Assembly: GCA_964626495.1 (NCBI GenBank)
Contig: CAZVFT010000003.1
Span: 1,995-53,220 of the forward strand
Reading direction: 5' to 3'
DNA length: 51,226 nt
Source: an uncultured bacterium
GTDB lineage: Bacteria; Fidelibacterota; Marinisomatia; Marinisomatales; CAZVFT01
The notes below the pieces were generated by a model. That model was not told where the DNA came from and ran no database searches. It was given only the letters and a program-made list of their open reading frames with translations. Both the position numbers and the translations under genes were made by a program. Below are positions 1 to 15,106 of the stretch, in pieces; position 1 is the first letter of the stretch, and each line of letters begins with the position of its first letter.

Positions 1-1775
1 ATGATGAAGGTTACAATGACAACTGTCTGGTGAACGTGGTATCCCTCGGGGTTGTTCGGGAGGATGAGATACTCCATTCTTACGCACCCCAAAATGCTGA
101 TGGCTACGATTTGATTCTGGTGGGAAAACCGACCGATAACAGCGGTTTTGGTGGCGCCAGCTTTGCATCACTGGAACTCAATGAAGAGGAAAAAGAGAGC
201 AAAAAAGCAGCCGTCCAGGAACCTAACGCCTTTCTAGAACGACATATCCTGAAAGCTACCTATGCTCTGTTCGACCTGCTAAAAGAGCGTGGTTATCTTG
301 ACAGGGTGGGATTCAAAGACCTGGGCGCTGGAGGAATAGCCTGCGCCAGCGTGGAATTAGCAGACGGTGGTGGCTACGGGGCAGATGTCTACCTCGACAA
401 GGTTCACATGGGGATGGAAAATCTCCATCCTTCCGTCATTCTTTGTTCGGAGACGCAGGAGCGATTCATGTGGGTATCACCTCCGGAATTAAGTAACATC
501 ATTCTCAATCATTATAATCAAACATACGACCTCCCCAATATTTCCAAGGGAGCTGAAGCACGAAAAATTGGTAAGATTCGTGGTGATAAACAATATACGG
601 TTTATTTTAATAGTGAGATTATCGTAGATGCTCGAGCCAGCGATGTAACAAAAGGCCTTCTTTACAATCGGGAATACAGATTGCCCAAGAAAAAACTAAC
701 AGAACCAGATATCCCAGAGCCTGATAATTATAACGAAACATTTCTCAAAATTTTGTCTCACGAGAATATCGCCTCAAGACACCCGGTTTTTGAGACGTAT
801 GATAAGCAAGTTCAGGGGAGGACAATCATTGAAGCTGGTGATGCCGACGCTGGAGTGATGCAGCCCTTCAACAATGACCACTACCCTGAAGAAATTCGTT
901 CCGTTGGAATTGCTCTCTCTGTGGACCACAATCCGCGTTACGGGAAGATTGATCCATTCTGGTGTGGGATCAACTCGGTGGTAGAAGCAATGCGCAATGT
1001 CGCTGCTGTTGGGGCAACCCCTCAGGCTGTCAGTGACTGTCTTTGCTTTGGAAATCCGGAAAAGCCGAACCAGATGGGACAGTTCGTGGAAAGTACTCGG
1101 GGAGTGTCAGAAGCGTGTAAGGAGATTCATCTCAAAGAGCACCCTAAAGAACCAGTCCCAATCATTGCCGGGAATGTTTCCTTCTACAACGAATCGAAGA
1201 ATGGTGCCATTCCGCCAAGCCCTATCATCGCCTGCCTGGGCAGGACGGAGGATGCAGCTCAAGCAGTAACTTCACACTTCAAGCGGATAGATTCCGTATT
1301 ACTGATTTTGGGTAAACGGAAGGACGAATGCGGTGGAAGCATTTATTATGCTCTCCACGATGAGCTTGGAGCCAATGTACCTCAACCTGATCTCGCAGAA
1401 ACTGAAGCCCAAATCTTCGCAGTTACAAATGTTATCTCTGCCGGTCTTGTCCTAGCCTGCCACGACATCTCCGAAGGGGGTATTGCCACTGCCCTGGCAG
1501 AGATGAGCTTCCGAAACGACATCGGGTGTGAGGTTAATATTCCAGGAGAATTGCGAACAGACAAATTACTTTTTTCTGAAACTGGAGGGTTTGTGCTGGA
1601 AGTGGCGCCAGGTAACTTGAAGACTCTCCGAGAAGTCTTTTTATCACGCGGTATTGAAGTAACAAAAATCGGCAAGACAACTGACAAGCCTATTCTGAGA
1701 ATCAACAACTTGGTGGACCACCCTGTCGCTGCAGCGAAGGAGGTATGGGAGAATGGGTTGCGAGAGAAGTTATGA
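1..1775 (+). CDS. purL: Phosphoribosylformylglycinamidine synthase subunit PurL (5'-partial)
   Basis: Frame is open from position 3 (DEGYNDNCLVNV). Motifs DLGAGG, SETQER, YDKQVQ, DCLCFGNPE, GNVSFYNE and HDISEGG. Confidence 0.96.
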   Translation, partial: DEGYNDNCLVNVVSLGVVREDEILHSYAPQNADGYDLILVGKPTDNSGFGGASFASLELNEEEKESKKAAVQEPNAFLERHILKATYALFDLLKERGYLDRVGFKDLGAGGIACASVELADGGGYGADVYLDKVHMGMENLHPSVILCSETQERFMWVSPPELSNIILNHYNQTYDLPNISKGAEARKIGKIRGDKQYTVYFNSEIIVDARASDVTKGLLYNREYRLPKKKLTEPDIPEPDNYNETFLKILSHENIASRHPVFETYDKQVQGRTIIEAGDADAGVMQPFNNDHYPEEIRSVGIALSVDHNPRYGKIDPFWCGINSVVEAMRNVAAVGATPQAVSDCLCFGNPEKPNQMGQFVESTRGVSEACKEIHLKEHPKEPVPIIAGNVSFYNESKNGAIPPSPIIACLGRTEDAAQAVTSHFKRIDSVLLILGKRKDECGGSIYYALHDELGANVPQPDLAETEAQIFAVTNVISAGLVLACHDISEGGIATALAEMSFRNDIGCEVNIPGELRTDKLLFSETGGFVLEVAPGNLKTLREVFLSRGIEVTKIGKTTDKPILRINNLVDHPVAAAKEVWENGLREKL

Positions 1776-1796
1776 CGGCTGCAGGTATTGAAAAAT

Positions 1797-1897
1797 GAAC
1801 ACAGGGCACCACCGAGAAGCACAGAGTAACACAGAGAAAATAATCAAAATTTCAACTGCTCTGTGGTTCTCTGAGATCCTCTGTGAACTCTGTGTCC
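1797..1897. repeat. CACAGAG-heptamer inverted-repeat element (gene-less), purL-purM spacer
   Basis: Four CACAGAG-like heptamers at 10-bp period (1800-1836), an AT-rich spacer, then four CTCTGTG-like heptamers (1859-1894). Could fold into a long hairpin. Confidence 0.9.
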
Positions 1898-1913
1898 CTA
1901 TGGTACTCACAAA

Positions 1914-2951
1914 ATGAGTAAAACAGATTACAAATCCGCCGGGGTGAACATTGATGCTGGCAATGAGGCAGTGGAACGCATCAAGTCTTCCGTCAAAAGC
2001 ACTTTTACATCTGCAGTGATGACAGACGTAGGAAGCTTCGGCGCCATGGTGGATCTGAAGGAGCTTCTAAAGGACTACGCTCACCCGGTGTTGGTCCAGA
2101 GCATTGATGGCGTGGGGACGAAAATGATTGTTGCCAGAATGATGAATAAATATGATACGATAGGTTTTGACCTTTTGGCTGCCACCTGCAACGATATCAT
2201 TGTGCACGGAGCAAAACCGATCACATTTCTTGATTACATCGCTGCCGATAAACTGGAGCCAGACATCATCGAGGCTATTGTTACGGGAATGACTGAAGCC
2301 TGCCATAAGGTCAACGTTCCGCTGGTAGGTGGGGAAACAGCTGAGATGCCGGATACGTATCTATCAAGCGAACATGATCTTGTGGGTGTCATCACTGGCG
2401 TGGTGGAGAAAGACAGTATTATAACTGGAGATTCAATTATTCCTGGGGATGTTGTGGTGGGCCTTCCCTCCAGTGGACTGCACACCAACGGTTACTCTCT
2501 TGCCAGAAAACTATTTTTTGATATTGGGAAATTCGACGTTTCTTCATCCATTCCCGATCTGGATAAGTCCATAGGTGAAACGCTTCTGGAACCACACATT
2601 AATTACACAAACTCTGTTTTAGCCCTGATTGACGCTGGCATTAAAATTCACGGTATCGCCCACATAACCGGCGGTGGGCTGGTTGAAAATATTCCACGGA
2701 TACTACCAGACGGATGCGCAGTTGAAACCCACAAGGGAAGCTGGCCAGTTCTACCTATATTTAAAGTGATGCAGTCCATTGACAATGTGGATGATGCTGA
2801 GATGGTCCGTACCTTTAATATGGGTATTGGTATGGTGTTAATTGTTGAACCAGAACAGATAGATGCAATAAAGGATGTACTACAAGATCTGATAGAAGTG
2901 TTTACGATTGGGTCGGTTGTTAAAGGAAGTAAAAACGTTGTATTTAAATGA
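1914..2951 (+). CDS. purM: Phosphoribosylformylglycinamidine cyclo-ligase (AIR synthetase)
   Basis: YKSAGVNIDAG, DGVGTK, GGETAEMP, SSGLHTNGYSL, HITGGG, RTFNMGIG. Confidence 0.97.
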   Translation: MSKTDYKSAGVNIDAGNEAVERIKSSVKSTFTSAVMTDVGSFGAMVDLKELLKDYAHPVLVQSIDGVGTKMIVARMMNKYDTIGFDLLAATCNDIIVHGAKPITFLDYIAADKLEPDIIEAIVTGMTEACHKVNVPLVGGETAEMPDTYLSSEHDLVGVITGVVEKDSIITGDSIIPGDVVVGLPSSGLHTNGYSLARKLFFDIGKFDVSSSIPDLDKSIGETLLEPHINYTNSVLALIDAGIKIHGIAHITGGGLVENIPRILPDGCAVETHKGSWPVLPIFKVMQSIDNVDDAEMVRTFNMGIGMVLIVEPEQIDAIKDVLQDLIEVFTIGSVVKGSKNVVFK

Positions 2952-2972
2952 GTGAGTTAGGGGATATAAAAT

Positions 2973-3044
2973 GAACACAGAGTACCACCGAGCAGCACAG
3001 AGTCACACAGAGATAATTTATAAAATTTTAGAAACTCTGTGTTC
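2973..3044. repeat. CACAGAG-heptamer element with truncated right arm, purM-purQ spacer
   Basis: GAACACAGAG tac CACCGAG cag CACAGAG tca CACAGAG, an AT spacer, then a single CTCTGTGTTC. Confidence 0.88.
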
Positions 3045-3074
3045 CAAAATTATTTTGGTGCGTTGTAAAATAAA

Positions 3075-4334
3075 ATGAAAATCGCCATTATCCAATTCCC
3101 TGGATCAAATACAGAGCGTGAAACTTTTCTCGCAGTTCAGCGTGCAGGGATGGAACCGGTGGAATTCCTCTGGAACAATGATCAAAATCAGCTGGAGGAG
3201 TACGATGGCTACATCATCGCTGGGGGTTTCTCCTACGAAGATCGCTCCCGAGCGGGGGTAATTGCTTCTCTCGACCCGATTGTTAATGAAATTAAAAAGC
3301 AGGCTCAAATCGGTAAGCCCGTGCTTGGCATCTGTAACGGGGCACAGATTCTGGTGGAGTCCGGGATGGTGCCAGGATTGGAAAACTACAGACTTGGAAT
3401 GGCTCTGACGAACAACAAGCGCGTCAGAAACGGTCACGTCCTGGGGACGGGATACTATAATGTGTGGACAAATCTGAAACTTGCTGTTCCATCAGAGAGA
3501 ACAGTATTTACACGCCATCTCAATGGAGGTGACATTATCACTATTCCTCTTGCCCATAGCGAAGGGCGTTTCGTTATTCCTGACGAGTTGTTAGATTATT
3601 TAATCAATAATAACCAGACTGTATTTCGCTACTGTGACGATGATGGGATTATCCATAATGAATTCCCCATCAATCCTAACGGTTCAGTGTACAACATTGC
3701 GGCTTTGTGCAATCCGGATGGCAACGTGATGGCAATTATGCCTCACCCGGAGAGGAAGACAAATGGAGATGCTATTTTCATGTCGATGAGGGACTACATT
3801 GAAAAAAACAATAAAATTCCTCGTAACGATCTTATAGATTACTTCCCCGGTGATTTAACCATCCCCAATTACTTTCCCTCTGAAAATGCATTTGAATTTC
3901 TTGTAGATTTAATCATTACCGATAACGAAGCTGTCACTGTGGAGAATGCTTTGCAACATCTCGGGATGCCCGTCAGAGTAACCCGGCAATCCCACTGGGA
4001 GATCGAAACAGACGCATTGAATCCAGATCAGACAAAATCTGCAATTATCAAGTCTTCTGAACTATTTAACTCTAACAAAGAACGACTCACCACTTATATT
4101 AAATTAAAAAATTCCGTATCTTTTCTGGTGCGCTCAAAGGATGATTTTACAGGACAACATAAACTTGAAGCTTTGAAACACTGGTTTGGAATTAGAAACA
4201 TTCAAACCGTTAAAAGCGGAGTGCTATGGACTATCACCTCAGAAAATGGGGATATAAATGATGCGGTCAAGCAGGTTCTTGAAACCCATATATTATTCAA
4301 CCGCTATTCTTACGACTGTTATAGATATGGTTAA
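3075..4334 (+). CDS. purQ: FGAM synthase glutaminase subunit PurQ with ~170-aa C-terminal extension (PurS-like)
   Basis: FPGSN, GGFSYED, GICNGAQIL, MPHPER. 419 aa versus ~230 for a typical PurQ. Confidence 0.93.
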   Translation: MKIAIIQFPGSNTERETFLAVQRAGMEPVEFLWNNDQNQLEEYDGYIIAGGFSYEDRSRAGVIASLDPIVNEIKKQAQIGKPVLGICNGAQILVESGMVPGLENYRLGMALTNNKRVRNGHVLGTGYYNVWTNLKLAVPSERTVFTRHLNGGDIITIPLAHSEGRFVIPDELLDYLINNNQTVFRYCDDDGIIHNEFPINPNGSVYNIAALCNPDGNVMAIMPHPERKTNGDAIFMSMRDYIEKNNKIPRNDLIDYFPGDLTIPNYFPSENAFEFLVDLIITDNEAVTVENALQHLGMPVRVTRQSHWEIETDALNPDQTKSAIIKSSELFNSNKERLTTYIKLKNSVSFLVRSKDDFTGQHKLEALKHWFGIRNIQTVKSGVLWTITSENGDINDAVKQVLETHILFNRYSYDCYRYG

Positions 4335-4403
4335 TGATGCATCTACTTGCTTATCTATGATTATTCTTAAAATGCGAAACTTTAACCTGAAAATTTAATC
4401 ACT

Positions 4404-5372
4404 ATGAACTCCTACAAAGAAAAAATTATCCGAGAATTAAACAACTGTTTGACGGTGACTAATCTTCCATATGGGAAAAAAGAAAGTGGTAAGGTTCGTG
4501 ATTCTTATGAGTTTGACGGACGGATGATTTTTATCACCACAGACCGACAAAGCGCTTTCGACCGTATCCTAACTTCCATTCCTTTTAAGGGGCAGGTACT
4601 GAATCAGACCAGCTCCTGGTGGTTTGAACAGACAAAGGAAATTATTCCCAATCATGTTATCTCTGTCCCGGATCCGAATGTGACCATTGGAATTAAATGC
4701 GATGTTTTCCCAATAGAGTTTGTTGTCCGTGGATACATCACAGGCACCACGGATACATCTCTCTGGACTCACTACAACAGAGGGGTTCGGAATTACTGCA
4801 GCAACAAATTACCTGAGGGGTTGCAAAAAAATCAAAAACTTGAAGTACCGCTCCTGACACCCACGACCAAGGATAAAAAGCACGACAGGCCTGTCAGTCC
4901 GGATGAGATTGTGAAAGATGGACTCATGTCCGAGGAAGATTTGGAAACGGTTAGCAATAAAGCGTTTGAACTGTTTACATTCGGACAAGAAACCGCCCAA
5001 AAACATGGTCTGATCCTGGTAGATACCAAGTACGAATTTGGTCGTGATGCTGACGGTAATGTCCTGCTTGTTGATGAAATCCACACACCGGACTCCAGCC
5101 GATACTGGCTTGCTGATAGTTACAAGAAACGGTTTGAGAAGGGTGAAGAGCCTGAGTACATTGATAAGGAATTTCTGCGTTTGTGGTTTGCGGAACACTG
5201 TGATCCATACAATGATGAAATGCTTCCAGAAGCACCTGAAGAATTGGTGATAGAGCTTTCCAGCCGATATATCTTTTTATATGAAACTATTACGGGGCAA
5301 AAGTTGCCATTTCCCGATTCAACAATATCTATTCAAGAACGTATTAATGAAAATTTGAAGGATTATTTATGA
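4404..5372 (+). CDS. purC: SAICAR synthetase
   Basis: GKVRD, TDRQSAFD, IPFKGQVLN, TPTTK, DTKYEFG, DEIHTPDSSRYW, DKEFLR. Confidence 0.97.
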   Translation: MNSYKEKIIRELNNCLTVTNLPYGKKESGKVRDSYEFDGRMIFITTDRQSAFDRILTSIPFKGQVLNQTSSWWFEQTKEIIPNHVISVPDPNVTIGIKCDVFPIEFVVRGYITGTTDTSLWTHYNRGVRNYCSNKLPEGLQKNQKLEVPLLTPTTKDKKHDRPVSPDEIVKDGLMSEEDLETVSNKAFELFTFGQETAQKHGLILVDTKYEFGRDADGNVLLVDEIHTPDSSRYWLADSYKKRFEKGEEPEYIDKEFLRLWFAEHCDPYNDEMLPEAPEELVIELSSRYIFLYETITGQKLPFPDSTISIQERINENLKDYL

Positions 5373-5776
5373 AAGCCGTAATTATAATGGGTTCCACGTC
5401 TGACGAAGCCCACGCTAAAAAAATCATAACCAAGTTGGAGGAACTGGGTATCGCCTTTGATCAGCATGTAGCGTCTGCTCATAAGAAACCTCGAAAGGTA
5501 CTGGAGATTATTGAATCATATAAGAACGAAACGGGTATTGTCTTCATCACAATCGCTGGACGCTCTAATGCTCTTTCCGGTTTCGTGGCTGCAAATTCTG
5601 AATTCCCAACCCTTGCCTGTCCCCCGTTCAAAGACAAAACAGATATGATGATTAACATCCACTCCACACTTCAGATGCCCAGCAACACCCCAGTGATGAC
5701 TGTGCTTGATCCTGGGAATTGCGCACTTGCAGTTAAAAGGATCCTCAGTTTAGCCACAGAGGGCACAGAGAAATAA
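5369..5776 (+). CDS. purE: AIR carboxylase PurE, class II-like
   Basis: IMGSTSD, SAHK, AGRSNALSG, ACPP, STLQMPS. Confidence 0.93.
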   Translation: MKAVIIMGSTSDEAHAKKIITKLEELGIAFDQHVASAHKKPRKVLEIIESYKNETGIVFITIAGRSNALSGFVAANSEFPTLACPPFKDKTDMMINIHSTLQMPSNTPVMTVLDPGNCALAVKRILSLATEGTEK

Positions 5777-6158
5777 ATTGTGGCAGATAAACTAACAGAA
5801 CTAATTATCGCGGCTGCCATCGAAGTACACCGGATTTTGGACCCCGGATTATTAGAATCCATTTACGAAGAAGCCCTATGCCCCGAACTGGCTCTACGTG
5901 GGCTTTCTGTCAAAAGGCAAGTAGAAATTGACGTAACATATAAGGGAAAGGTTATTAAAGGACAACGGATTGATATTCTTGTCGAAGGTCAGGTTGTCGT
6001 TGAATTAAAATCTGTGAGTTCTCTCCCCGAGGTGGCCCTAGCTCAGACCCTTTCATATTTGAAGGCAACAGACCTGAAACGATCTCTTCTCATCAACTTT
6101 GGAGAAAAGCGTCTGGTTGACGGCATAAAGAGGATTTCTCTGTGACCTCTGTGGCTAA
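5750..6158 (+). mobile_element. Putative 409-bp GxxExxY element with 25-bp terminal inverted repeats
   Basis: TTAGCCACAGAGGGCACAGAGAAAT (5750-5774) versus ATTTCTCTGTGACCTCTGTGGCTAA (6134-6158): 24/25 inverted match enclosing a single ORF. Confidence 0.75.
5780..6145 (+). CDS. GxxExxY protein (PD-(D/E)XK nuclease-like)
   Basis: EVHRIL-PGLLESIYEEAL, RIDILV, VELKSV, AQTLSYLK, LLINF. Confidence 0.93.
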   Translation: MADKLTELIIAAAIEVHRILDPGLLESIYEEALCPELALRGLSVKRQVEIDVTYKGKVIKGQRIDILVEGQVVVELKSVSSLPEVALAQTLSYLKATDLKRSLLINFGEKRLVDGIKRISL

Positions 6159-7491
6159 TTCTATTTCTCCTTTGGATGGACGATACGCTGAAAGCGTTAA
6201 AACACTTTCCGATTATTTTTCAGAAGCAACACTCATACGCTACCGGTTGAAAGTTGAAATCGAGTATCTCATTGCTTTAGGAAATGAAAAAGGGGTCAAA
6301 GAACGGTCACCATTTTCAAAAACCGAAAAGGCGCAGTTACGAAAAATATATGAGAACTTTGATTCAACCACTGCTCAAAAAGTTAAAGAAATCGAAGCCA
6401 CTACCAACCACGATGTTAAGGCTATTGAATATTTTCTCCAGACCAAAATTAAAAAATCTCTCCATCCGTGGATTCACTTCGCCCTTACCTCAGAGGATAT
6501 TAACAATCTCGCCTACGCCCTTATGTGGCGTGATGGTGTCAGACAGGCTTATATCCCCACCCTTCAAAAAGTGTGTGGCCATCTGCGTAGATTTGCCATC
6601 CGTTATAAAGACCTACCCCTTCTCGCTCTGACCCACGGTCAACCTGCTACTCCTACTTCACTGGGGAAAGAGTTCGCTGTTTTCGCCAGCCGCCTCCAGG
6701 GGCAGCTCCGGCAGTTGAAAGCCCACCAACTCCAGGGAAAACTCTCCGGTGCTACGGGAACGTGGGCTGCCCACACAACTGCCTATCCCAACGTCAACTG
6801 GGTTGCCTTCAGCAAACGGTTTGTGAAATCCTTGGGTTTAGAGCCCAACCTTATCACCACTCAAATCGAGCCGAACGACTCTCTTGCAGAAAACTACCAT
6901 ATCCTGATTCGCGTAAACACCATTCTGTTGGACCTCTGCCGAGACGTCTGGCTCTACATTAGTCGGGGTATTTTCGGACAGAAAACGAAGAGCGACGAAG
7001 TGGGCTCTTCCACCATGCCGCACAAAGTAAATCCTATCCATTTCGAGAACGCTGAGGGAAACCTTGGCATCGCTAACGCTTACCTGTCTCATCTGGCGCA
7101 AACACTCCCCGTCTCTCGGATGCAGCGAGACCTCTCCGGCAGCACCGTCATACGGAACCAAGGCGTACCGCTGGCTCACTCGCTGCTGGCGTGTAAAAAT
7201 ATACTGAAAGGACTCGACCGCCTCACCATAAACCGTGAGAGAATCCGCGAAGAACTGAACGATCACTTGGAGGTATTAGCAGAAGCTATTCAAACAATTC
7301 TCCGTAAATCGGGTGACCCACATCCATATGAACGGCTGAAAGACTTCACGCGTGGGAAGAAGATAACACAAGATGACATTAGGGCATTTGTTCAGACTCT
7401 CGATCTACCGGAGAAGGAAAGAAAAGCACTGCTAGCGCTGACACCGGAGAATTATATAGGATTGGCTGCAAAAATCGTGGAATTACTATGA
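6142..7491 (+). CDS. purB: Adenylosuccinate lyase
   Basis: ISPLDGRY, TNHDVKAIEY, TSEDINN, THGQPATP, GSSTMPHKVNPI, SRMQRDLS. Confidence 0.97.
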   Translation: MTSVANSISPLDGRYAESVKTLSDYFSEATLIRYRLKVEIEYLIALGNEKGVKERSPFSKTEKAQLRKIYENFDSTTAQKVKEIEATTNHDVKAIEYFLQTKIKKSLHPWIHFALTSEDINNLAYALMWRDGVRQAYIPTLQKVCGHLRRFAIRYKDLPLLALTHGQPATPTSLGKEFAVFASRLQGQLRQLKAHQLQGKLSGATGTWAAHTTAYPNVNWVAFSKRFVKSLGLEPNLITTQIEPNDSLAENYHILIRVNTILLDLCRDVWLYISRGIFGQKTKSDEVGSSTMPHKVNPIHFENAEGNLGIANAYLSHLAQTLPVSRMQRDLSGSTVIRNQGVPLAHSLLACKNILKGLDRLTINRERIREELNDHLEVLAEAIQTILRKSGDPHPYERLKDFTRGKKITQDDIRAFVQTLDLPEKERKALLALTPENYIGLAAKIVELL

Positions 7492-7632
7492 ACACAGAGA
7501 ACCACAGAGAAAGCCTTAGCCCTGGGCGTTCCGCGACTGCGAGCCCTCAGAGAACCACCGAGCAAAGAAAAAACATTCGGGTAAATAATTCTTCTCCGTG
7601 GCACTCTGTGACCCTCCGTGAGCTCTGTGTCC
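7490..7632. repeat. CACAGAG-heptamer inverted-repeat element with nested ~33-bp insertion, purB-purF spacer
   Basis: Left arm CACAGAG x2, GC-rich insert 7510-7545, then CTCAGAG and CACCGAG. Right arm CTCCGTG/CTCTGTG x4 ending TGTGTCC. Confidence 0.9.
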
Positions 7633-7645
7633 AAAGGAAATATTA

Positions 7646-9124
7646 ATGTGCGGTATTGTCGGTATATTTTCTCATAGACCCGTTGCTGGCGAGCTATACG
7701 ATAGCCTGATCCATCTTCAACATCGCGGGCAGGATGCCGCCGGTATTATGACTTATGACAGACGAATGCATAAAGAAAAAGGACTGGGGATGGTACAGGA
7801 TATTTTTACCGAAGATAACATGGGTCTTCTTAGCGGTAATATTGGAGTGGGTCATACCCGCTATCCCACCCACGGTGGATTTGGCCATGGTGAGATTCAG
7901 CCCTTCTGGACAGAAGTCCCCTACGGTATTGCTATGGCACACAATGGAAACCTGGTAAATTATCGGGAATTAGCACGCGAGATAACGAAAAAGGAAAAAC
8001 GATACCTGAATACCACCAGTGATACGGAAACCATTTTACATCTCTTTGCAGACGCACTCAGCAAAAACAGTGTAGCAGAATCAGATGAACAGTTTTTTGA
8101 ACAAATCTGTCAAGCTGTTCAACAGGTATTCCACCGCGCCAGTGGATCTTATTCAACGGTCAGCATGATTGTTGGGAAAGGTATGGTTGTGTTTCGTGAC
8201 CCGCACGGAATCCGACCGCTCTCGATGGGTAAGCGGAAAAATTTGGATGGAACTGATGATTATATCTTCGCTTCAGAGACCACAATGTTTTATGCTCTTG
8301 ATTATACATTAATTGGCAATGTATCCCCTGGAGAAGTAATTTATATCAGTAGTAACGGAAGAAAATTCAATTGTATTCTGCAGAAGAAACAATTTACTCC
8401 CTGCGTTTTTGAATATGTCTATTTTTCCCGACCTGATACTATGATGAACGATGTGAGCGTATACCGGGCTCGCCTGCGAATGGGGCAGAATCTCGCCAAC
8501 CGCTGGAAAAAGCGTTATCCGGGAATTTTACCGGATGTAGTGATTCCAGCACCTGCCACATCCAACACCGCTGCCTTATCCCTGGCTCATGAACTGGGTG
8601 TGCGTTATACGGAAGGATTGTATAAGAATCCCTTTATCGGCCGTACATTTATTATGCCCGGCCAGGAAAGACGAAAAAAATCTGTTAAGTACAAATTGGT
8701 GCCACAGGAAATTGAAATCCGCGACAAAAATGTGATGATTGTAGATGATAGTATTGTTCGAGGAAACACATGTAAAGAAATTGTAAAAATGGTGCGGGAT
8801 TTCGGAGCAAAGAATGTCTACTTCACGGTCTCCTGCCCGCCAGTAAAACTCCCATGCTTCTATGGGGTGGATATGCCTACGAAGTTAGAGCTTATCGCAA
8901 GCCAGATGAACGAGAAGGGAATCCAAGAATTCATAGGAGCAGACATTCTACTCTACCAAGAAATTGATGATCTGGTAGAAGCCGTCACCCGAAAGGGGGA
9001 ACACCATATTGATCGTCCCTGTATGGCATGTCTGGACGGATGGTACGTCACGGGAGATGTAGACGATGAGAAAATGCAGCTCATGGAAAATCAACGAAAT
9101 ATTGAGAGGTCCCAGTTAACATGA
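7646..9124 (+). CDS. purF: Amidophosphoribosyltransferase
   Basis: MCGIVG N-terminus, LQHRGQDAAG, GHTRYPT, HNGNL, CVFEYVYF, VDDSIVRG. Confidence 0.97.
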   Translation: MCGIVGIFSHRPVAGELYDSLIHLQHRGQDAAGIMTYDRRMHKEKGLGMVQDIFTEDNMGLLSGNIGVGHTRYPTHGGFGHGEIQPFWTEVPYGIAMAHNGNLVNYRELAREITKKEKRYLNTTSDTETILHLFADALSKNSVAESDEQFFEQICQAVQQVFHRASGSYSTVSMIVGKGMVVFRDPHGIRPLSMGKRKNLDGTDDYIFASETTMFYALDYTLIGNVSPGEVIYISSNGRKFNCILQKKQFTPCVFEYVYFSRPDTMMNDVSVYRARLRMGQNLANRWKKRYPGILPDVVIPAPATSNTAALSLAHELGVRYTEGLYKNPFIGRTFIMPGQERRKKSVKYKLVPQEIEIRDKNVMIVDDSIVRGNTCKEIVKMVRDFGAKNVYFTVSCPPVKLPCFYGVDMPTKLELIASQMNEKGIQEFIGADILLYQEIDDLVEAVTRKGEHHIDRPCMACLDGWYVTGDVDDEKMQLMENQRNIERSQLT

Positions 9125-10431
9125 TGATACTTCTTATTGGTTCCGGAGCGAGAGAACACGCTATCGTCCGTGCCCTGGCACGATCCCCGCAGAAGCCCAC
9201 GATTGTCTGTCTCGCCTCCAACAACAATCCCGGTATTAAAAAATTGTGCCGCCAATTCTCTTTAGGTAAGATCACTAATCCACAGGATGTTGTGGAATTT
9301 GCCAGAACGCACAGTGCCGATCTGGCAATTGTTGGTCCAGAAGCACCATTGGAAGTGGGTGTGGCAGACGCCTTGTTGGATGCCGGTATCTCCACAGTCG
9401 GTCCCAAGAAAGCCCTCGCTCAGATCGAGACCAGCAAAGGATTCACCCGGGATCTGCTAAAGAAATACAACATCCCCTCCTGTCCAAAGTACCGTGTGTT
9501 TAGCAGTATGGACGGAGTCTCTGAAATCTTGAGTGAGCTGGGAGAAGCATACGTAGTAAAGTTTGATGGTCTGATGGGTGGGAAAGGAGTAAAAGTTGCC
9601 GGTGATCATCTTCATTCACACGATGACGCTACTTCCTATTGTCAGGAAATTATTAAAAAAGGCGGAAAATTTGTTATTGAAGAAAAGCTGATTGGTCAGG
9701 AATTTTCTCTCATGAGCTTCTCTGATGGTGACCATCTGGCTCATATGCCCCCAGTTCAGGATCATAAAAGAGCGTATGTCGGCGATACCGGTCCTAATAC
9801 AGGAGGAATGGGAAGTTACTCGGACAGTAATCACCTCCTTCCTTTTCTTACAGAAAAAGATATTGTCCAAGCACAACAGTTTAATCAGGCAACCATTGAT
9901 GCCCTGAAAAAAGAATTTGGTGAAGGATACAAGGGAATCCTCTATGGTGGATTCATTGCAACTGCTGACGGTGTAAAACTTATCGAATATAATGCCAGAT
10001 TGGGTGATCCTGAGGGAATGAATGTGCTGGCCATATTGGAATCGGATTTTGTTAACATCTGCCAAGCAATTATGGATGGGACATTGACACAGGAACATGC
10101 CCGATTTTCTAATTTGGCTACTGTATGCAAGTACGCAGTTCCAGAAGGCTATCCCGACTCGCCGGTGAAAGGAGAACCCATTGATATTTCTGCAGTCACC
10201 AAGACCAATCAGCTCTACTACGCTTCTGTGGAGGCGAAGGATGAACAGCTTTATGAGGCAGGATCGCGGACTGTAGCATACGTCGGAATTGCAGAGACGC
10301 TGAGTGAAGCAGAGGCAAAGGCGGAATCGGAGATCTCAAAGGTCAGGGGATCATTATTTCATCGAACGGATATCGGGACAAATGAGCTGATTCAGAAGCG
10401 GATTGAACACATGCATGAACTCCGTCTTTAA
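9121..10431 (+). CDS. purD: Phosphoribosylamine-glycine ligase
   Basis: IGSGAREHA, VGPEAPL, GKGV, QDHKR, GPNTGGMG, EYNARLGDPE. Confidence 0.97.
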   Translation: MMILLIGSGAREHAIVRALARSPQKPTIVCLASNNNPGIKKLCRQFSLGKITNPQDVVEFARTHSADLAIVGPEAPLEVGVADALLDAGISTVGPKKALAQIETSKGFTRDLLKKYNIPSCPKYRVFSSMDGVSEILSELGEAYVVKFDGLMGGKGVKVAGDHLHSHDDATSYCQEIIKKGGKFVIEEKLIGQEFSLMSFSDGDHLAHMPPVQDHKRAYVGDTGPNTGGMGSYSDSNHLLPFLTEKDIVQAQQFNQATIDALKKEFGEGYKGILYGGFIATADGVKLIEYNARLGDPEGMNVLAILESDFVNICQAIMDGTLTQEHARFSNLATVCKYAVPEGYPDSPVKGEPIDISAVTKTNQLYYASVEAKDEQLYEAGSRTVAYVGIAETLSEAEAKAESEISKVRGSLFHRTDIGTNELIQKRIEHMHELRL

Positions 10432-10436
10432 TAAAA

Positions 10437-10455
10437 GCAACTAAATAACAGTTGC
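10437..10455. promoter_or_regulatory. Candidate hicAB operator (inverted repeat overlapping a -35-like TTGCAT)
   Basis: GCAACT-aaataac-AGTTGC about 30 bp upstream of hicA. Confidence 0.5.
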
Positions 10456-10485
10456 ATATTACTTCAGTAAGACTGTAAATTCCTT

Positions 10486-10761
10486 GTGAGTAAAATAGAA
10501 AAACTGATTCAAAGGTTCTTATCGAAACCAAAGGATTTCAAATATGCTGAAGCAAAAAAATTGTTACGCCATTACGGATACACAGAATTAACAAAAGGGA
10601 GAACGTCAGGATCGCGTGTTGCATTTGTAAACCAAAAACTGAAAAGATCTATCCTGCTACACAAACCGCACAAGGGACTTTTGAAACCCTATCAATTGAC
10701 TGAAATAAAGAATGAACTCATCAAAGCAGGAAAAATATTAGAGGAGAAAGAAGATGGTTAA
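10486..10761 (+). CDS. hicA: Type II toxin, HicA family
   Basis: Small basic protein with KGRTSGSRVAF and LHKPH; overlaps a hicB-like gene. Confidence 0.88.
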   Translation: MSKIEKLIQRFLSKPKDFKYAEAKKLLRHYGYTELTKGRTSGSRVAFVNQKLKRSILLHKPHKGLLKPYQLTEIKNELIKAGKILEEKEDG

Positions 10762-11110
10762 AGATACATTGTTTTACAAAGGATTTTACGGTTCAATTCA
10801 TTACACCGATGACGACAAGTGTCTGTACGGTCATATTATAGGTATCACAGATTCTGTCTCTTATGAAGGGACAACTATAAAAGAAATCACCAACGACTTT
10901 CATAGGGCAGTTGATGACTACATTGCTGTTTGTAAAACCATGGGTAAAACGCCCTTAAAATCTGCAAAGGGTTCTTTTAATGTTCGGATTGGCGAAGAAG
11001 CGCACTTGAAAGCATTGATTAAAGCGGATATGAAAAAAACATCCTTAAATCAAATTGTAAAAGAAGCTGTAGAAAAAGAGATTGAGGATATTGAGTTGGT
11101 GGTTGAATGA
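10754..11110 (+). CDS. hicB: Type II antitoxin, HicB family
   Basis: YKGFYGSI, FHRAVDDY, KGSFNVRI and an RHH-like C-terminus (SLNQIV). Confidence 0.9.
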   Translation: MVKDTLFYKGFYGSIHYTDDDKCLYGHIIGITDSVSYEGTTIKEITNDFHRAVDDYIAVCKTMGKTPLKSAKGSFNVRIGEEAHLKALIKADMKKTSLNQIVKEAVEKEIEDIELVVE

Positions 11111-11150
11111 AACTGTGGTTTTATGTAAAGGTTTTCGAGTGTTAATCAAG

Positions 11151-11233
11151 TGGAATAATATTGTAGTGAGCCAACCTGTAACTGGAATAATATTGTAATG
11201 CCCACACAAGACTGGATTGGAAATAATATTGCA
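11151..11233. repeat. Three spaced copies of TGGA(A)TAATATTG(T/C)A
   Basis: Identical 15-mers at 11151-11165 and 11183-11197; near copy at 11218-11233. Confidence 0.7.
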
Positions 11234-11254
11234 CTTATCATACAAGAAGGGAAA

Positions 11255-11273
11255 TCTCCGTGACCTCTGTGGC
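11255..11273. repeat. Solo right end of the GxxExxY-type TIR containing the purN start codon
   Basis: TCTCCGTGACCTCTGTGGC is 18/19 identical to 6137-6155. Confidence 0.8.
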
Positions 11274-11880
11274 AAAATCAATAAAACTCGGCATCCTCGG
11301 CTCCACCAAGGGTACCGACCTCCAGGGCATCATTGATGCCATCGCGGATGGCAGACTCGACGCATCGGTAGAAATCGTCATCAGCAACCGGATGAAATCC
11401 TACATCCTGGAGCGGGCCCGAAATCACAGCATTGATGCCGTCTTTATCAGTCACAAGGGGAAAGAACGGGAACAGTTTGATCGGGAGATGACGGAATTAC
11501 TGGAGGCTAAGGGAGTGAAACTCATTCTCCTCATCGGCTTCATGCGGATTCTTTCCCCGTGGTTTTGTCGTCGTTGGCATAACCGTGTCCTCAATGTCCA
11601 CCCTTCCCTCCTTCCCAAGTACGCTGGCGGGATGGATATGAATGTTCACGAAGAAGTTCTCAAAAACCATGACACAGAGACTGGCTGCACGATACACATC
11701 GTCACGGCTGAAGTGGATGCTGGTCCCATTGTTATTCAGAAAAAATGTGCAGTGAAACCTGATGACACACCAGAAACACTCAAAACAAAAGTGCAGTTAC
11801 TTGAAGGAAAGGCGTTTATTGAAGCAATCAAAATGTTCCAGAAAAATGAATTTTTGTGCGGTGACAAGACCTCTCAGTAG
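11260..11880 (+). CDS. purN: Phosphoribosylglycinamide formyltransferase
   Basis: GFMRIL, NVHPSLLP, TGCTIH, VDAGP. Confidence 0.96.
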   Translation: MTSVAKSIKLGILGSTKGTDLQGIIDAIADGRLDASVEIVISNRMKSYILERARNHSIDAVFISHKGKEREQFDREMTELLEAKGVKLILLIGFMRILSPWFCRRWHNRVLNVHPSLLPKYAGGMDMNVHEEVLKNHDTETGCTIHIVTAEVDAGPIVIQKKCAVKPDDTPETLKTKVQLLEGKAFIEAIKMFQKNEFLCGDKTSQ

Positions 11881-12113
11881 AATGGATTCAAGGGTATAAT
11901 ATGAAACCCATTATAATTCGTTAGTTCTGATAAGAGATAATGTTCACAGTTCTTGTTAATAACACAATCCTCCCTCCTGTTCCCGAAACTTCTGGACGTG
12001 AGGACATCCTTCTTTGAGGGAGTACAAAGATAAATCAGGAAATTATGACAATAAAATTGGTCGCTCTGAATCAAGTAAAGTAGTGGCAAAAGACTATATT
12101 TCGACTCCAGAAA

Positions 12114-12404
12114 AAGTCCCCTCTAGAGAGGGGATAAAGGGGTATGTTGTGAGACGAAAAATCATTCCCTACAATCCAAAATTGAAGAAGACAAAGAACG
12201 TCAGAAAAGATTAGAATCTTTCGATGTCCAGTTTCTTCGTTTTCACAAGATAGATGTAAAGCAAGATATAGGAGATGTCCTCACAGCAATCGAAAATTGG
12301 ATTGACAGATTTGAAAAGAGACAAATTGGGCATCATAGTAAAACATAAACAATTAACACACCCCGCCCGATTGTCATCGGGACACCCCTCTGAAGAGGGG
12401 ACTT
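12114..12404 (+). mobile_element. Inverted-repeat-bounded DUF559 element remnant
   Basis: AAGTCCCCTCTAGAGAGGGG (12114-12133) versus CCCCTCTGAAGAGGGGACTT (12385-12404), 18/20 inverted. Inner GGGGTATGTT / AACACACCCC, 9/10. Confidence 0.7.
12149..12348 (+). pseudogene. DUF559 / Vsr-like endonuclease with core deleted
   Basis: N-terminus MRRKIIPYNPKLK joined out of frame to C-terminus EDKERQKRLESFDVQFLRF..DVKQDIGDVLTAIENWI. The middle (catalytic) region is absent. Confidence 0.75.
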
Positions 12405-12430
12405 CTTTAAACAGGAGGCATTTAAACAGA

Positions 12431-13969
12431 ATGAACACAGAAAAGACATCGGTTAAAACAGCACTAATCTCCGTTTCTAACAAGGATGAAATCGTCGAAT
12501 GCGCCAAAGGCTTAACTGACCTCAGCGTGGAGATCCTCTCCACTGGTGGCACGGCTAAGGTACTGCGTAATGCCGGCATCCCTGTCTCTGATGTATCTGA
12601 TTACACCGGATTTCCAGAGATTATGGACGGACGAATAAAAACTATCAATCCGTTAGTAGAAGGGGGCATTCTGGGCTTGCGTGATGCGCATCAGGAAGAA
12701 GCGAAAGCAAACAAAATCCAATGGATCGACCTTGTGATCTGTAATCTCTACCCCTTTGCTGAGACAGTCCAGAAACAGGGGGTTATATTGGACAATGTCC
12801 TTGAGAATATCGACATCGGCGGGCCAACTATGATTCGCTCCGCCGCTAAGAATGTGGGGTGGGTTGGGGTAGTGGTAGATCCAGACGATTACGATTCCGT
12901 CCTGATCGATCTGCGAGAGGAATGTGGATTGACATTCGAAACAAGGAAGCGTCTCTCCGCCAAGGCATTCGGGCATACAGCCAAATACGACAGTCTCATT
13001 CACAACCACCTAAAGAGTGACCAGTTGTCAGACGATTTTTCTCTGACGTTCGAAAAGTATTACGACCTCCGCTATGGAGAGAATCCTCATCAGAAGGCTG
13101 CCGCTTACAAAGTACCAGTCTCCACTGGGCCGAACATTCTCAATGCCACAATCAATCAGGGCAAGAAACTATCCTACAATAATGTAATGGATGCTGATGG
13201 TGCGCTGGCTTGTTTGAGGGAATTTACTGAACCCGCTTGTGTGGTTGTTAAACACACCAATCCTTGCGGTGTTGCCATTGGAGACAACATCACTGACTGC
13301 TTTCACCGTGCCTTTAACGCTGACTCTCTTTCAGCCTTCGGCGGTATCGTTGCTCTGAACAGAACGTGCACAACGGAAATTGTTGAGGCATTGCGAAAAA
13401 TATTCATCGAGATCATCCTTGCACCTGACTTTGAAGGAGGTGCACTCGAACTCTTCTCCAAAAAGAAAAATCTCCGGGTACTTGGAATCGGGGACATTTC
13501 TGAACGACAACCCCAGATTGAACACCGCTACCTGGATGGCGGCTTGCTTGTTCAGGAAAGTAACGTTCATACGTTAACACGTGAACAACTGCGCACCGTG
13601 ACGAAAGTGCAACCTTCAAAACGTGAGATTGAGGATATGCTGTTTGGCTGGAAGGTGTTGAAGCATGTGAAATCCAACGGAATTTTAACCGCGAAGAATA
13701 ACACAACTTTAGGAATAGGTGCTGGACAGGTTAGCCGTGTGGATGCTGTGGAAATCGCCATCCGTAAATCGGGAGACAAACTGGAAGGCGCCATTGTCGC
13801 CTCTGATGCTTTCTTCCCTTTCCGAGACAGCATAGACCGGATTGAGGATACAGGAATAAAGGCCGTCATCCAGCCGGGAGGTTCAATACGGGATGAGGAG
13901 GTTATTGATGCCTGTAATGAACATGGGATTGCGATGGTGTTTACCGGTATGCGGTGTTTCAAACATTGA
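12431..13969 (+). CDS. purH: Bifunctional AICAR transformylase / IMP cyclohydrolase
   Basis: ALISVSNK, STGGT, NIDIGGPTM, LRYGENPHQ, KHTNPCG, SDAFFPF, RCFKH. Start moved to ATG 12431, downstream of AGGAGG. Confidence 0.96.
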   Translation: MNTEKTSVKTALISVSNKDEIVECAKGLTDLSVEILSTGGTAKVLRNAGIPVSDVSDYTGFPEIMDGRIKTINPLVEGGILGLRDAHQEEAKANKIQWIDLVICNLYPFAETVQKQGVILDNVLENIDIGGPTMIRSAAKNVGWVGVVVDPDDYDSVLIDLREECGLTFETRKRLSAKAFGHTAKYDSLIHNHLKSDQLSDDFSLTFEKYYDLRYGENPHQKAAAYKVPVSTGPNILNATINQGKKLSYNNVMDADGALACLREFTEPACVVVKHTNPCGVAIGDNITDCFHRAFNADSLSAFGGIVALNRTCTTEIVEALRKIFIEIILAPDFEGGALELFSKKKNLRVLGIGDISERQPQIEHRYLDGGLLVQESNVHTLTREQLRTVTKVQPSKREIEDMLFGWKVLKHVKSNGILTAKNNTTLGIGAGQVSRVDAVEIAIRKSGDKLEGAIVASDAFFPFRDSIDRIEDTGIKAVIQPGGSIRDEEVIDACNEHGIAMVFTGMRCFKH

Positions 13970-13984
13970 TTATGTTTATCTGAA

Positions 13985-15106
13985 GTGAGCAAATCTGCAA
14001 CATTATTATTAGAAGATGGACAGATTTTCCGGGGGATTCTTTTGGGGTGTGACGGAGAAACTACTGGGGAAGTTTGCTTTAATACAGGTATGACTGGTTA
14101 TCAAGAAGTGCTCACAGATCCTTCTTACTATAAACAGATTGTCACCATGACATCCCCCCATATTGGAAACACGGGAGTAAACCCTGATGATATCGAATCT
14201 AACCGAATCCAAGTCGCTGGGTTTGTGATTAAAGAAGAAACAGATATCCCATCCAACTGGCGTTCCACACAATCTATTGGTAATTATTTACGAGAGCAAA
14301 ATATCGTTGGGATTCAGGGGATAGATACAAGAGCACTCACCAGATATATCCGGGACAAAGGCGCCATGAATGGCATCATTTCAACGATAGATTCTAATAT
14401 GGATTCGCTGAAACAAAAATTGAGCACAGTACCAAACATGACAGGTCTCGATTTGGTACAGGAAGTAACATGTGATAAGTGTTATGTATGGAATGGCACA
14501 ACTCCTCCGCAGTAGCTCCATTTTGGAGCACCAGCCCACCACTCCGCCAATTACAAGATTGCTGCCATCGATTTTGGCATCAAGTATAACATCCTTCAAT
14601 TACTGGGAAGTCATAGTTGTGATGTAACGGTTTTTCCCGCTCAAACTTCGGCAAAGGATATTCTGGATTTCAATCCAGATGGTATATTATTAAGTAATGG
14701 TCCCGGTGACCCAGCTGCTGTGACTGACGGCATCAAGATGGTGAAACAAATCTTAGGGAAAAAACCAATATTTGGGATTTGTCTTGGTCACCAGATTTTA
14801 TCACTGGCATCAGGTGCTAAAACATTTAAATTAAAATTTGGACATCGGGGAATCAATCATCCTGTAAAAAACTTGGAAACAGGTTCCATTGAAATTACCA
14901 GCCAGAATCACGGTTTTGCAGTGGACTTGAATAACTTACCTGAAAACATAATTCCAACACACTTGAATCTAAACGACAATACACTGGAAGGTATCCGATG
15001 TAAAGATATTCCAGCCTTTTCTGTTCAATATCATCCGGAATCAAGTCCCGGACCTCATGATAGCCAATATCTATTTAAACAATTTATCAATTTGATGAGT
15101 GCCTAA
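13985..15106 (+). pseudogene. carA: Carbamoyl-phosphate synthase small chain interrupted by an in-frame TAG (14513-14515)
   Basis: GEVCFNTGMTGYQE before the stop. The same frame continues [37 protein letters not shown]. Confidence 0.88.

Follow-up and report, generated by a model that had tools for sequence, protein, structure and literature searches.

Hairpin-bounded nuclease cassettes at the overlapping junctions of a bacterial purine operon, where repeat arms probably provide stop and start codons of core genes

Compact operons in which stop and start codons overlap are usually thought to be closed to insertions, which raises the question of what would become of gene ends if a mobile sequence were to settle in one. 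The case considered here is a 51,226-nt stretch of DNA (contig CAZVFT010000003.1 of assembly GCA_964626495.1) from an uncultured bacterium of the Marinisomatales, hereafter the window, in which positions 1-14,000 hold a purine (pur) operon with the order purL, purM, purQ(S), purC, purE, purB, purF, purD, purN and purH, as assigned from Pfam matches and open reading frames (ORFs). Between purE and purB lies what we take to be a cassette, that is, a small PD-(D/E)XK nuclease gene bounded by inverted arrays of the heptamer CACAGAG (hereafter arms), which would have been inserted into an overlapping purE/purB junction. Gene-less hairpins or single arms sit at four more junctions of the operon. A preliminary description had proposed that the ends of this element supply start and stop codons of its neighbours, a finding that turns out to be real and mostly correctly read. 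We put at roughly 0.7 the probability that compact pur junctions were entered by a selfish cassette able to move horizontally, along with gene-less copies of it, and that arms replaced the termini that were lost.

The two arms of the cassette consist of two heptamers each, end outwards in TTAGCC (left) and GGCTAA (right), and are separated by 359 nt (5750-5774 and 6134-6158). The double-heptamer motif is found in six copies in the window against 0.22 expected, a number that none of 100 shuffled sequences reached. Both neighbouring genes run into these arms, as the preliminary description had stated. Bases 5750-5773 read LATEGTEK in the purE frame and lead into a TAA (5774-5776), the first base of which would be supplied by the arm because base 5774 is the last base of that arm. 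On the other side, the nuclease TGA (6143-6145) overlaps a purB-frame GTG (6142-6144) as GTGA, and a second in-frame GTG follows at 6151. With the GTG start of the nuclease at 5780, 3 nt past the purE TAA, the three cistrons stay abutting (purE TAA, 3 nt, nuclease GTG, GTGA, purB).

The purB locus was taken from 40 relatives of the same order, with longer operon stretches from 14 of them, and purE adjoins purB in 28 of the 30 loci compared. The junction is compact or overlapping in eight of these 28 (KRIFGV-stop / GTGTCTGA type); in a typical empty one PurE ends in KRIFGV, and the purB GTG and the purE stop share an 8-nt overlap, so that PurB begins VSDxLNxISPLDGRY. In the window both the native FGV tail and the VSDQLN head are lost, PurE reading KRIL-S-LATEGTEK before its stop and PurB M(TSV)ANS-ISPLDGRY. 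The PurE tail is limited to two loci, that of the window (ATEGTEK) and that of G001, a member of the same genus, in which it is one heptamer shorter (TTEK); none was seen in the other 26 of the 28 loci. Judged against the 8-nt overlap at empty sites, the eight residues at the end of PurE, and the first base of the TAA that follows them, would therefore now come from the left arm. As for the starts, no in-frame ATG, GTG or TTG other than the arm GTGs was found between the arm and the ISPLDGRY core of PurB or the KLG..GS core of PurN, and the right arm is predicted to hold the sole usable start codons of purB. Repeat sequence fused in frame, and lacking in repeat-free orthologues, is seen for the PurE tail and for the predicted PurB and PurN heads alike (26 or more relatives); homologues at repeat-free junctions do not share the terminal peptides, in agreement with the preliminary description.

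At the start of purN lies a copy of the right arm without a partner (11250-11282, 82% identical to 6132-6164). The PurN of compact relatives starts M(I)KLG, its gene overlapping purD through ATGA; in the window, the ORFs of purB and purN both read MTSVA. The solo arm is present at the purN start of four genomes from three families (the window, G001, G022 and G003), and is kept despite differing upstream sequence (hicAB, 27 nt or 3.2 kb), which fits the earlier idea that the element leaves coding scars behind. The first (inner) GTG of this arm is GTA in G001 and G022, so the conserved purN start is probably the outermost GTG, at 11269, and by analogy that of purB the one at 6151, giving proteins that begin with MAKS and MANS. 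MTSVA itself is thus probably not the conserved beginning. AGAGGA lies 7 nt upstream of the purB GTG at 6142, and both this GTG and the one at 11260 have a better-spaced AGGA motif than the outermost GTGs; the 16S rRNA 3' end, wanted for judging the use of Shine-Dalgarno motifs, was not found in the assembly. Whichever GTG is used, the starts of purB and purN would fall within an arm.

Two further gene ends that had been linked to the repeat behave differently. The decamer ATGAACACAG is found at 7488-7497, around the purB TGA (7489-7491), and at 12431-12440, where it includes the purH ATG; the 2.28-Mb genome has six copies of it, where base composition predicts 5.3. Three copies are homologous left ends of three hairpins, and the purH copy is a single extra occurrence. 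A repeat-derived purH start (MNTEK) was rejected since relatives begin this protein with MNTEK (G019), MNTDK (G022) or MNTH (G003), with an ATGA overlap onto purN and no repeat; this start is ancestral and the decamer occurs at chance frequency. The purB TGA does lie in the decamer at the beginning of a hairpin, but it was rejected as a repeat-supplied stop since it has the same codon position in hairpin-free relatives. In G004 the purB stop region reads TTATGAACA, and the array begins about 22 nt later. Three of the four original observations thus hold and exceed chance, while the fourth, the purH decamer, is a coincidence. Another candidate arm, a perfect CACAGAG-TT-CACAGAG pair (32217-32232, within window positions 32211-32232 on the - strand), encodes TEFTE within a 680-aa surface protein that ends in YRLEATEFTETKKLLLLK, in the conserved sorting domain at its C-terminus, and was set aside as probably a coding coincidence.

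How often such junctions have been occupied was surveyed in 110 junction-genome pairs (nine junctions in 15 genomes) with a heptamer-pair regular expression, which replaced a gapless inverted-repeat finder with 9-mer seeds that overlooked imperfect hairpins. Fifty-six pairs are compact (12 nt or less), 22 contain an array detected in this way, and 32 were classed as 'other', many of which contain hairpins or single arms that the expression missed. Ancestral pur junctions have no spare bases (ATGA, GTGTCTGA and TGATG overlaps), so that an insertion would have removed the last PurE codons and the first codons of PurB and PurN. As read from the junction sequences, gene ends at occupied junctions take several forms. 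The purL TAA abuts an arm and the purM GTG lies within it in G017; the purB GTG lies within an arm in G022; purQ takes its GTG from an arm in G001 and G017, as does purM in G019. The purC stop (TAA or TAG) is formed by the outer TTAA or TTAG of an arm in G022, G032 and G017, leaving protein length unchanged, and at other insertions a native ATG is kept just outside the arm, for example at purB in G009 and G004 and at purM in the window. By eye, an arm GTG is used in roughly one event in three at operon junctions.

The cargo of these insertions points to repeated arrival. PF13366 copies at the purE/purB junction share 49% (G022) and 50% (G009) identity with the window protein, and one at purL/purM of G017 is 78% identical, in an order within which PurB itself shows just 51-78% identity. 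These identities, with those of the copies in other phyla given below, show that the purE/purB junction was hit independently at least three times and that the gene and its arms move horizontally. The right end of the gene-less purB/purF hairpin of the window is 85% identical over 67 nt to both hairpins on either side of the PF13366 gene that G004 has at this junction; there the matching right end, AAAGGAAATAT and an ATG precede the nuclease gene, and a second copy precedes purF as it does in the window, which suggests that the right end with AAAGGAAATAT is a portable ribosome-binding site. That G004 gene sits between two tandem complete hairpins, the first partly N-masked, and not within one loop. 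In the pur operon of G005, four junctions have arrays of another unit (AACACTT / AAGTGTT), and the ORF at its purE/purB junction has PF05635-like motifs. Within each genome, a single unit type seems to have colonised the operon. The window and G001 also form a mosaic of amino acid identity over 5369-9124 (PurE 90%, nuclease 91%, PurB 75%, PurF 97%), and the purB of the window resembles its counterparts in G004 and G032 (78%) more than that of G001, which suggests recombination within the operon.

The cargo matches PF13366 with 129 bits (cut-off 22) over residues 4-119 of 121. Residues G23, E26, Y29, D65, E75 and K77, which make up the GxxExxY motif and the catalytic D, E and K of PD-(D/E)XK nucleases, are invariant among 12 sequences. 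An AlphaFold2 (AF2) model with a pLDDT of 94.4 is closest in Foldseek, through weak matches, to Cas4 SSO0001 (E 0.0038, TMq 0.58), lambda exonuclease and Hjc, with probabilities of 0.9-1.0, and PDB sequences searched with a profile of the family gave no match (best E 0.77). All nine PF13366 genes of the genome are flanked by inverted arrays of a ~7-nt unit, which varies among the copies (CACAGAG, CACTAAG, CACGAAT, CGCAAAG and CGCGAAT). Genome-wide, the heptamer-pair expression has 186 matches against 64-75 in shuffled sequences, and eight of 16 CACAGAG-containing arrays fall in 9.5 kb of the pur operon. The collection genome_contigs holds 576 nuclease relatives confirmed by tblastn, and the best matches there are 62-78% identical, are labelled as metagenome-assembled genomes (MAGs) of Planctomycetota, Acidobacteriota, Hydrogenedentota and Gallionellaceae, and have the same TTAGCCACAGAG arms. 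Ungapped inverted repeats scoring at least 14 flank 49 of 80 loci from other genomes. The type of arm tracks the clade of the nuclease: CAC[AC]GAG arms accompany 15 of 19 loci with a nuclease identity of at least 62%, compared with 7 of the 61 whose identity does not exceed 55% (p 6e-8, although genomes that are related are not independent).

Other repeats of this genome were noted as well. The family PF05635 ('23S rRNA IVS protein', from intervening sequence) has eight matches in this genome, G000 (contigs C53, C35, C14, C42, C76, C110 and C61), and at least five of these genes are flanked by inverted arrays of other short units, for example of CAAGTTT and CATCAACCAT types, so that a second cargo family has the same layout. 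Chimeric paired arrays with non-complementary arms, which could form no perfect hairpin, are found in G000 at C4:36886-37014, C30:12633-12818 and C32:1592-1777, where left arms of the CACAGAG or CGCAAAG type are combined with right arms of the ATTCGTG or ATCCGTG type. A separate repeat family that begins with GACAGGTTTACGCTAATTTTCGCTAAT has at least eight copies among solo arrays (G000 C37:13760, C79:3256, C60:11764, C12:18461, C2:11669 and others).

At the RNA level, the arms of the cassette pair in minimum free energy (MFE) and centroid folds alike, the purB/purF hairpin (7492-7634) has a predicted fold of -45.5 kcal/mol (z -3.04), and the genome encodes RNase III. The locus was found at 99% identity or more in four seawater RNA libraries from one study, contigs of which span purE-cassette-purB (5267-6326), purB-hairpin-purF (6457-8019 and 7060-8351) and hicB-arm-purN (10825-11343). 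These junction-spanning contigs are compatible with co-transcription; contig ends and uncovered parts are uninformative, and no RNA ends are shown by them.

Taken together, these comparisons show that a unit of nuclease and arms which spreads horizontally, with its gene-less copies, has occupied zero-space junctions repeatedly and independently, and that arm sequence has replaced host termini. In the mechanism that we propose, the nuclease would act on its own cognate arms, and insertion would clip a few terminal codons of the neighbouring genes. Surviving copies would be those whose arms make good the lost codons by restoring a stop and a start: the left arm is open in the purE frame and leads into a TAA, the complement of the CAC unit provides the in-frame GTG codons of the right arm, and some right ends bring an AAAGGA ribosome-binding motif as well. 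Translation would stay coupled through the abutment of stop and start codons, and partnerless arms would persist where they have been turned into a start, as presumably at purN. More speculatively, ribosomes finishing purE could open the stem that holds the purB start, linking the two genes.

Several observations weigh against this interpretation. Target-site duplications of 4 nt or more were seen in 0-1 of 49 loci, which equals a shifted control (identical 2-nt flanks at 7 of 49 loci, against 1 in the control, are not convincing), and the RNA-library contigs of the locus contain no joints and no empty or excised form, so that the case for mobility is a comparative one. These contigs, moreover, cannot prove a single transcript, and DNA may be present in RNA libraries. 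Foldseek gave no solved structure at an E value of 0.001 or better. The nuclease has a higher pN/pS between the window and G001 (0.36, from just 25 differences) than purE (0.13) or purF (0.08), and one RNA-library contig (run X3, depth 6.4) has TC for GT at 5780-5781, a population variant in which its GTG start becomes TCG, so that the gene may be decaying here. The outermost GTGs of purB and purN (6151 and 11269) lack a well-spaced AGGA, and the purB start may be 6142 or 6151 and that of purN 11260 or 11269.

Nor do all element ends carry the ready-made stop and start signals that had been proposed. Across phyla, among 39 cassettes with a co-directional upstream ORF, the upstream stop lies within -5 to +1 of the outer base of the arm in 11, often as the TAG of TTAGCC, and inside the arm in a further four, which makes arm-end stops a recurrent and fairly common feature. 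Of 31 stops in this genome, however, just 4 fall at -4 or -5 relative to an arm and two inside one, and the idea that a stop codon always abuts the arm was dropped as not general here. The first start lies in an arm at 8 of 38 loci across phyla, at least two of which have a better ATG just past the arm, and the downstream ATG is usually 6-35 nt outside. Since starts lie mostly outside arms, a ready-made start is no general property of the family, and arm GTG starts look like a lineage-specific, local solution.

Could the arms be something other than the ends of a mobile element? They might be spread by recombination or gene conversion among junctions and co-occurring strains, with the nuclease as passive cargo. 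The identity mosaic between the window and G001 described above, the clustering of same-unit arrays in one operon, the lack of target-site duplications and the position of the G004 nuclease between tandem hairpins would all agree with this. The catalytic triad is nevertheless invariant in 12 diverse copies, the 576 relatives come with clade-specific arms, and co-variation with the arms would be surprising in a passive cargo; we consider this explanation unlikely. It is quite unlikely, too, that the arrays are cis-regulatory or RNA-processing signals of the host, that is, global regulator sites, or RNase III stems at which the polycistronic message would be cut and pur stoichiometry thereby set, retained for their usefulness and with the overlap with coding ends being secondary. 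Such a role would find precedents in the opposite-strand tandem octa-/heptanucleotide repeats of Geobacter metallireducens, annotated as 'predicted global regulator binding sites' in the text available from PMC2700814, and in the RNase III excision of ORF-bearing 23S rRNA intervening sequences mentioned in PMC4990558 (the genome has this enzyme); the hairpins do fold better than shuffled sequences (z about -3), and the operon is enriched in arrays in several relatives. A host signal is hard to reconcile, however, with a unit that differs among relatives at the same junction (CACAGAG, AACACTT and GTGTT types), with the many relatives that are array-free (56 of 110 pairs being compact), and with arms whose type tracks the nuclease clade and that accompany the gene from phylum to phylum.

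That ORF calling has produced an artefact is highly improbable. Under that explanation the repeats would be intergenic, PurB and PurN would start at a non-canonical codon past the arm, and the PurE tail would be harmless read-through; an ATT codon does follow the purB arm, and no well-placed Shine-Dalgarno motif precedes the outermost GTG. Against this stand the lack of any ATG, GTG or TTG between arm and conserved cores, the conservation of the in-frame arm GTG at purN in four genomes of three families despite differing flanking insertions, and the same arm-start solution at purM and purQ of other genomes. Furthermore, the native heads and tails are physically absent, so that PurE cannot terminate unless some residues encoded by the arm are translated. 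The reading in which a mobile nuclease cassette and its copies entered the junctions, and arms took over the gene ends, thus remains the preferred one. The features on which it draws are collected in Table 1.

Table 1. Genes, arms and hairpins of the pur operon (window coordinates)
Feature	Position	Strand	Remarks
purL/purM gene-less hairpin	1797..1899 (about)	.	same heptamer type; RNA fold -33.4 kcal/mol, z -2.96
purM/purQ partial hairpin	2972..3045	.	four left units, one right unit
purE	5369..5776	+	Pfam AIRC E 6.7e-37; residues 128-135 (LATEGTEK) and first TAA base read from arm
Left cassette arm	5750..5774	.	two CACAGAG heptamers, outer end TTAGCC; inverted repeat of 25 nt, 96% complementary
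PF13366/GxxExxY PD-(D/E)XK nuclease gene, 121 aa	5780..6145	+	Pfam PDDEXK_3 E 1.4e-37
Right cassette arm	6134..6158	.	contains nuclease TGA 6143-6145 and purB GTGs 6142, 6151
purB	6142..7491	+	Pfam Lyase_1 and ASL_C; predicted start within right arm; TGA at ancestral position
purB/purF gene-less hairpin	7492..7634	.	same heptamer type; AAAGGA 7633-7638, then purF ATG 7646
Partnerless right-arm copy	11250..11277	.	contains putative purN start codons 11260, 11269
purN	11260..11880	+	predicted start within solo arm; Pfam Formyl_trans_N from residue 11; relatives point to 11269
purH	12431..13969	+	tested as repeat-derived start, excluded; ancestral start

Two stretches near purN hold further insertions. 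Between purD and purN a hicA/hicB pair (Pfam) is inserted at window positions 10486-11252; it is followed by three or four TGGAATAATATTG-like repeat copies (11148-11252; repeat families D4 and D10), and similar repeats open an unrelated insertion of ~870 nt at purD/purN of G019. The spacer between purN and purH (11881-12430) contains a 23-nt inverted repeat (12111-12133 / 12385-12407, 87%) that encloses broken ORF pieces, which resemble a decayed DUF559-type endonuclease gene. Its palindrome is found again on contig C40, and the spacer may be a second kind of small nuclease cassette.

Elements that resemble the cassette in part are known. REPIN/RAYT and REP systems also form dispersed intergenic hairpin repeats in which a single-copy gene is flanked by inverted copies and many copies are gene-less (Delihas 2011, PMC3184786). 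The cargo of the cassette is, in contrast, a PF13366 nuclease and not a Y1 (IS200/IS605-like) transposase, a domain that Pfam did not find in the cassette ORF (a genome-wide RAYT search was not made); its arms are arrays of 7-nt units at a ~10 nt period and not GC-rich REP stems; and protein and arms are found together across phyla at 62-78% identity. MITEs (miniature transposable elements with inverted repeats) such as Correia (CREE), Neisseria REP2, BOX/RUP and Rickettsia palindromic elements (RPEs) are likewise small, inverted-repeat elements co-transcribed with their neighbours, some of which extend ORF 3' or 5' ends, and RPEs fuse in frame with genes (PMC3184786 and PMC10969869). Extension of gene ends is thus on record for other small repeat families (Delihas 2011, PMC3184786), and an abstract on CREE mentions RNase III binding. 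The cassette shares terminal inverted repeats with MITEs and insertion sequences (ISs), as 25 nt that are 96% complementary in the window and at 49 of 80 related loci, and differs from MITEs in that no target-site duplication was found, that its full-length form bears a nuclease, and that its insertions lie in zero-space overlapping stop/start junctions and replace the termini of both neighbours. The transposase of an autonomous MITE or IS partner was not found either, the sole ORF between the arms matching PF13366 alone. We know of no related IS transposase for this cassette.

Two more systems come close. In 23S rRNA intervening sequences (IVSs) a small ORF (PF05635/S23p) also lies in the loop of a long inverted-repeat stem within a transcribed region, and that stem is cut by RNase III, as available excerpts of PMC4990558 indicate. 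The cassette, unlike these, lies in an mRNA operon between purE and purB, carries an ORF of a different family and needs no excision at the RNA level. The Geobacter metallireducens sites (Aklujkar et al. 2009, PMC2700814) are opposite-strand pairs of 4-5 tandem octa-/heptanucleotide repeats at variable distance and in many copies; they were read as regulator sites, and the available part of that paper connects them neither with a nuclease gene nor with gene termini. Literature searches on GxxExxY, PDDEXK_3 and PF13366, and on intervening-sequence proteins and hairpins, turned up no description of the cassette. A bolder proposal, possible but doubtful, is that it represents an undescribed class of nuclease-driven mobile element adapted to translationally coupled operons, with clade-specific recognition of arms, a portable TAR stop on the left, GTG or AAAGGA on the right and a stem that links the cistrons. 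If this were true, ribosomes melting the left arm would free the purB start 360 nt away, and insertion would be non-polar and could be exapted, as at purN.

What these junctions offer is a natural experiment, in which hairpin-bounded nuclease cassettes and gene-less copies repeatedly enter overlapping junctions in 15 related genomes, and the repeat would lend host genes their stop codons, start codons and terminal residues. The implications concern (i) annotation, since repeats may encode starts and tails in uncultured genomes that are rich in them, and (ii) the evolution of core enzymes, for which arms would be a source of small terminal peptide changes. The cassette also provides a handle on the very widespread PF13366 family, the function of which is listed as 'Unknown' in the accessible part of Steczkiewicz (2012, PMC3424549), and the co-variation between nuclease clade and arm unit yields a direct, testable prediction of its substrate specificity.

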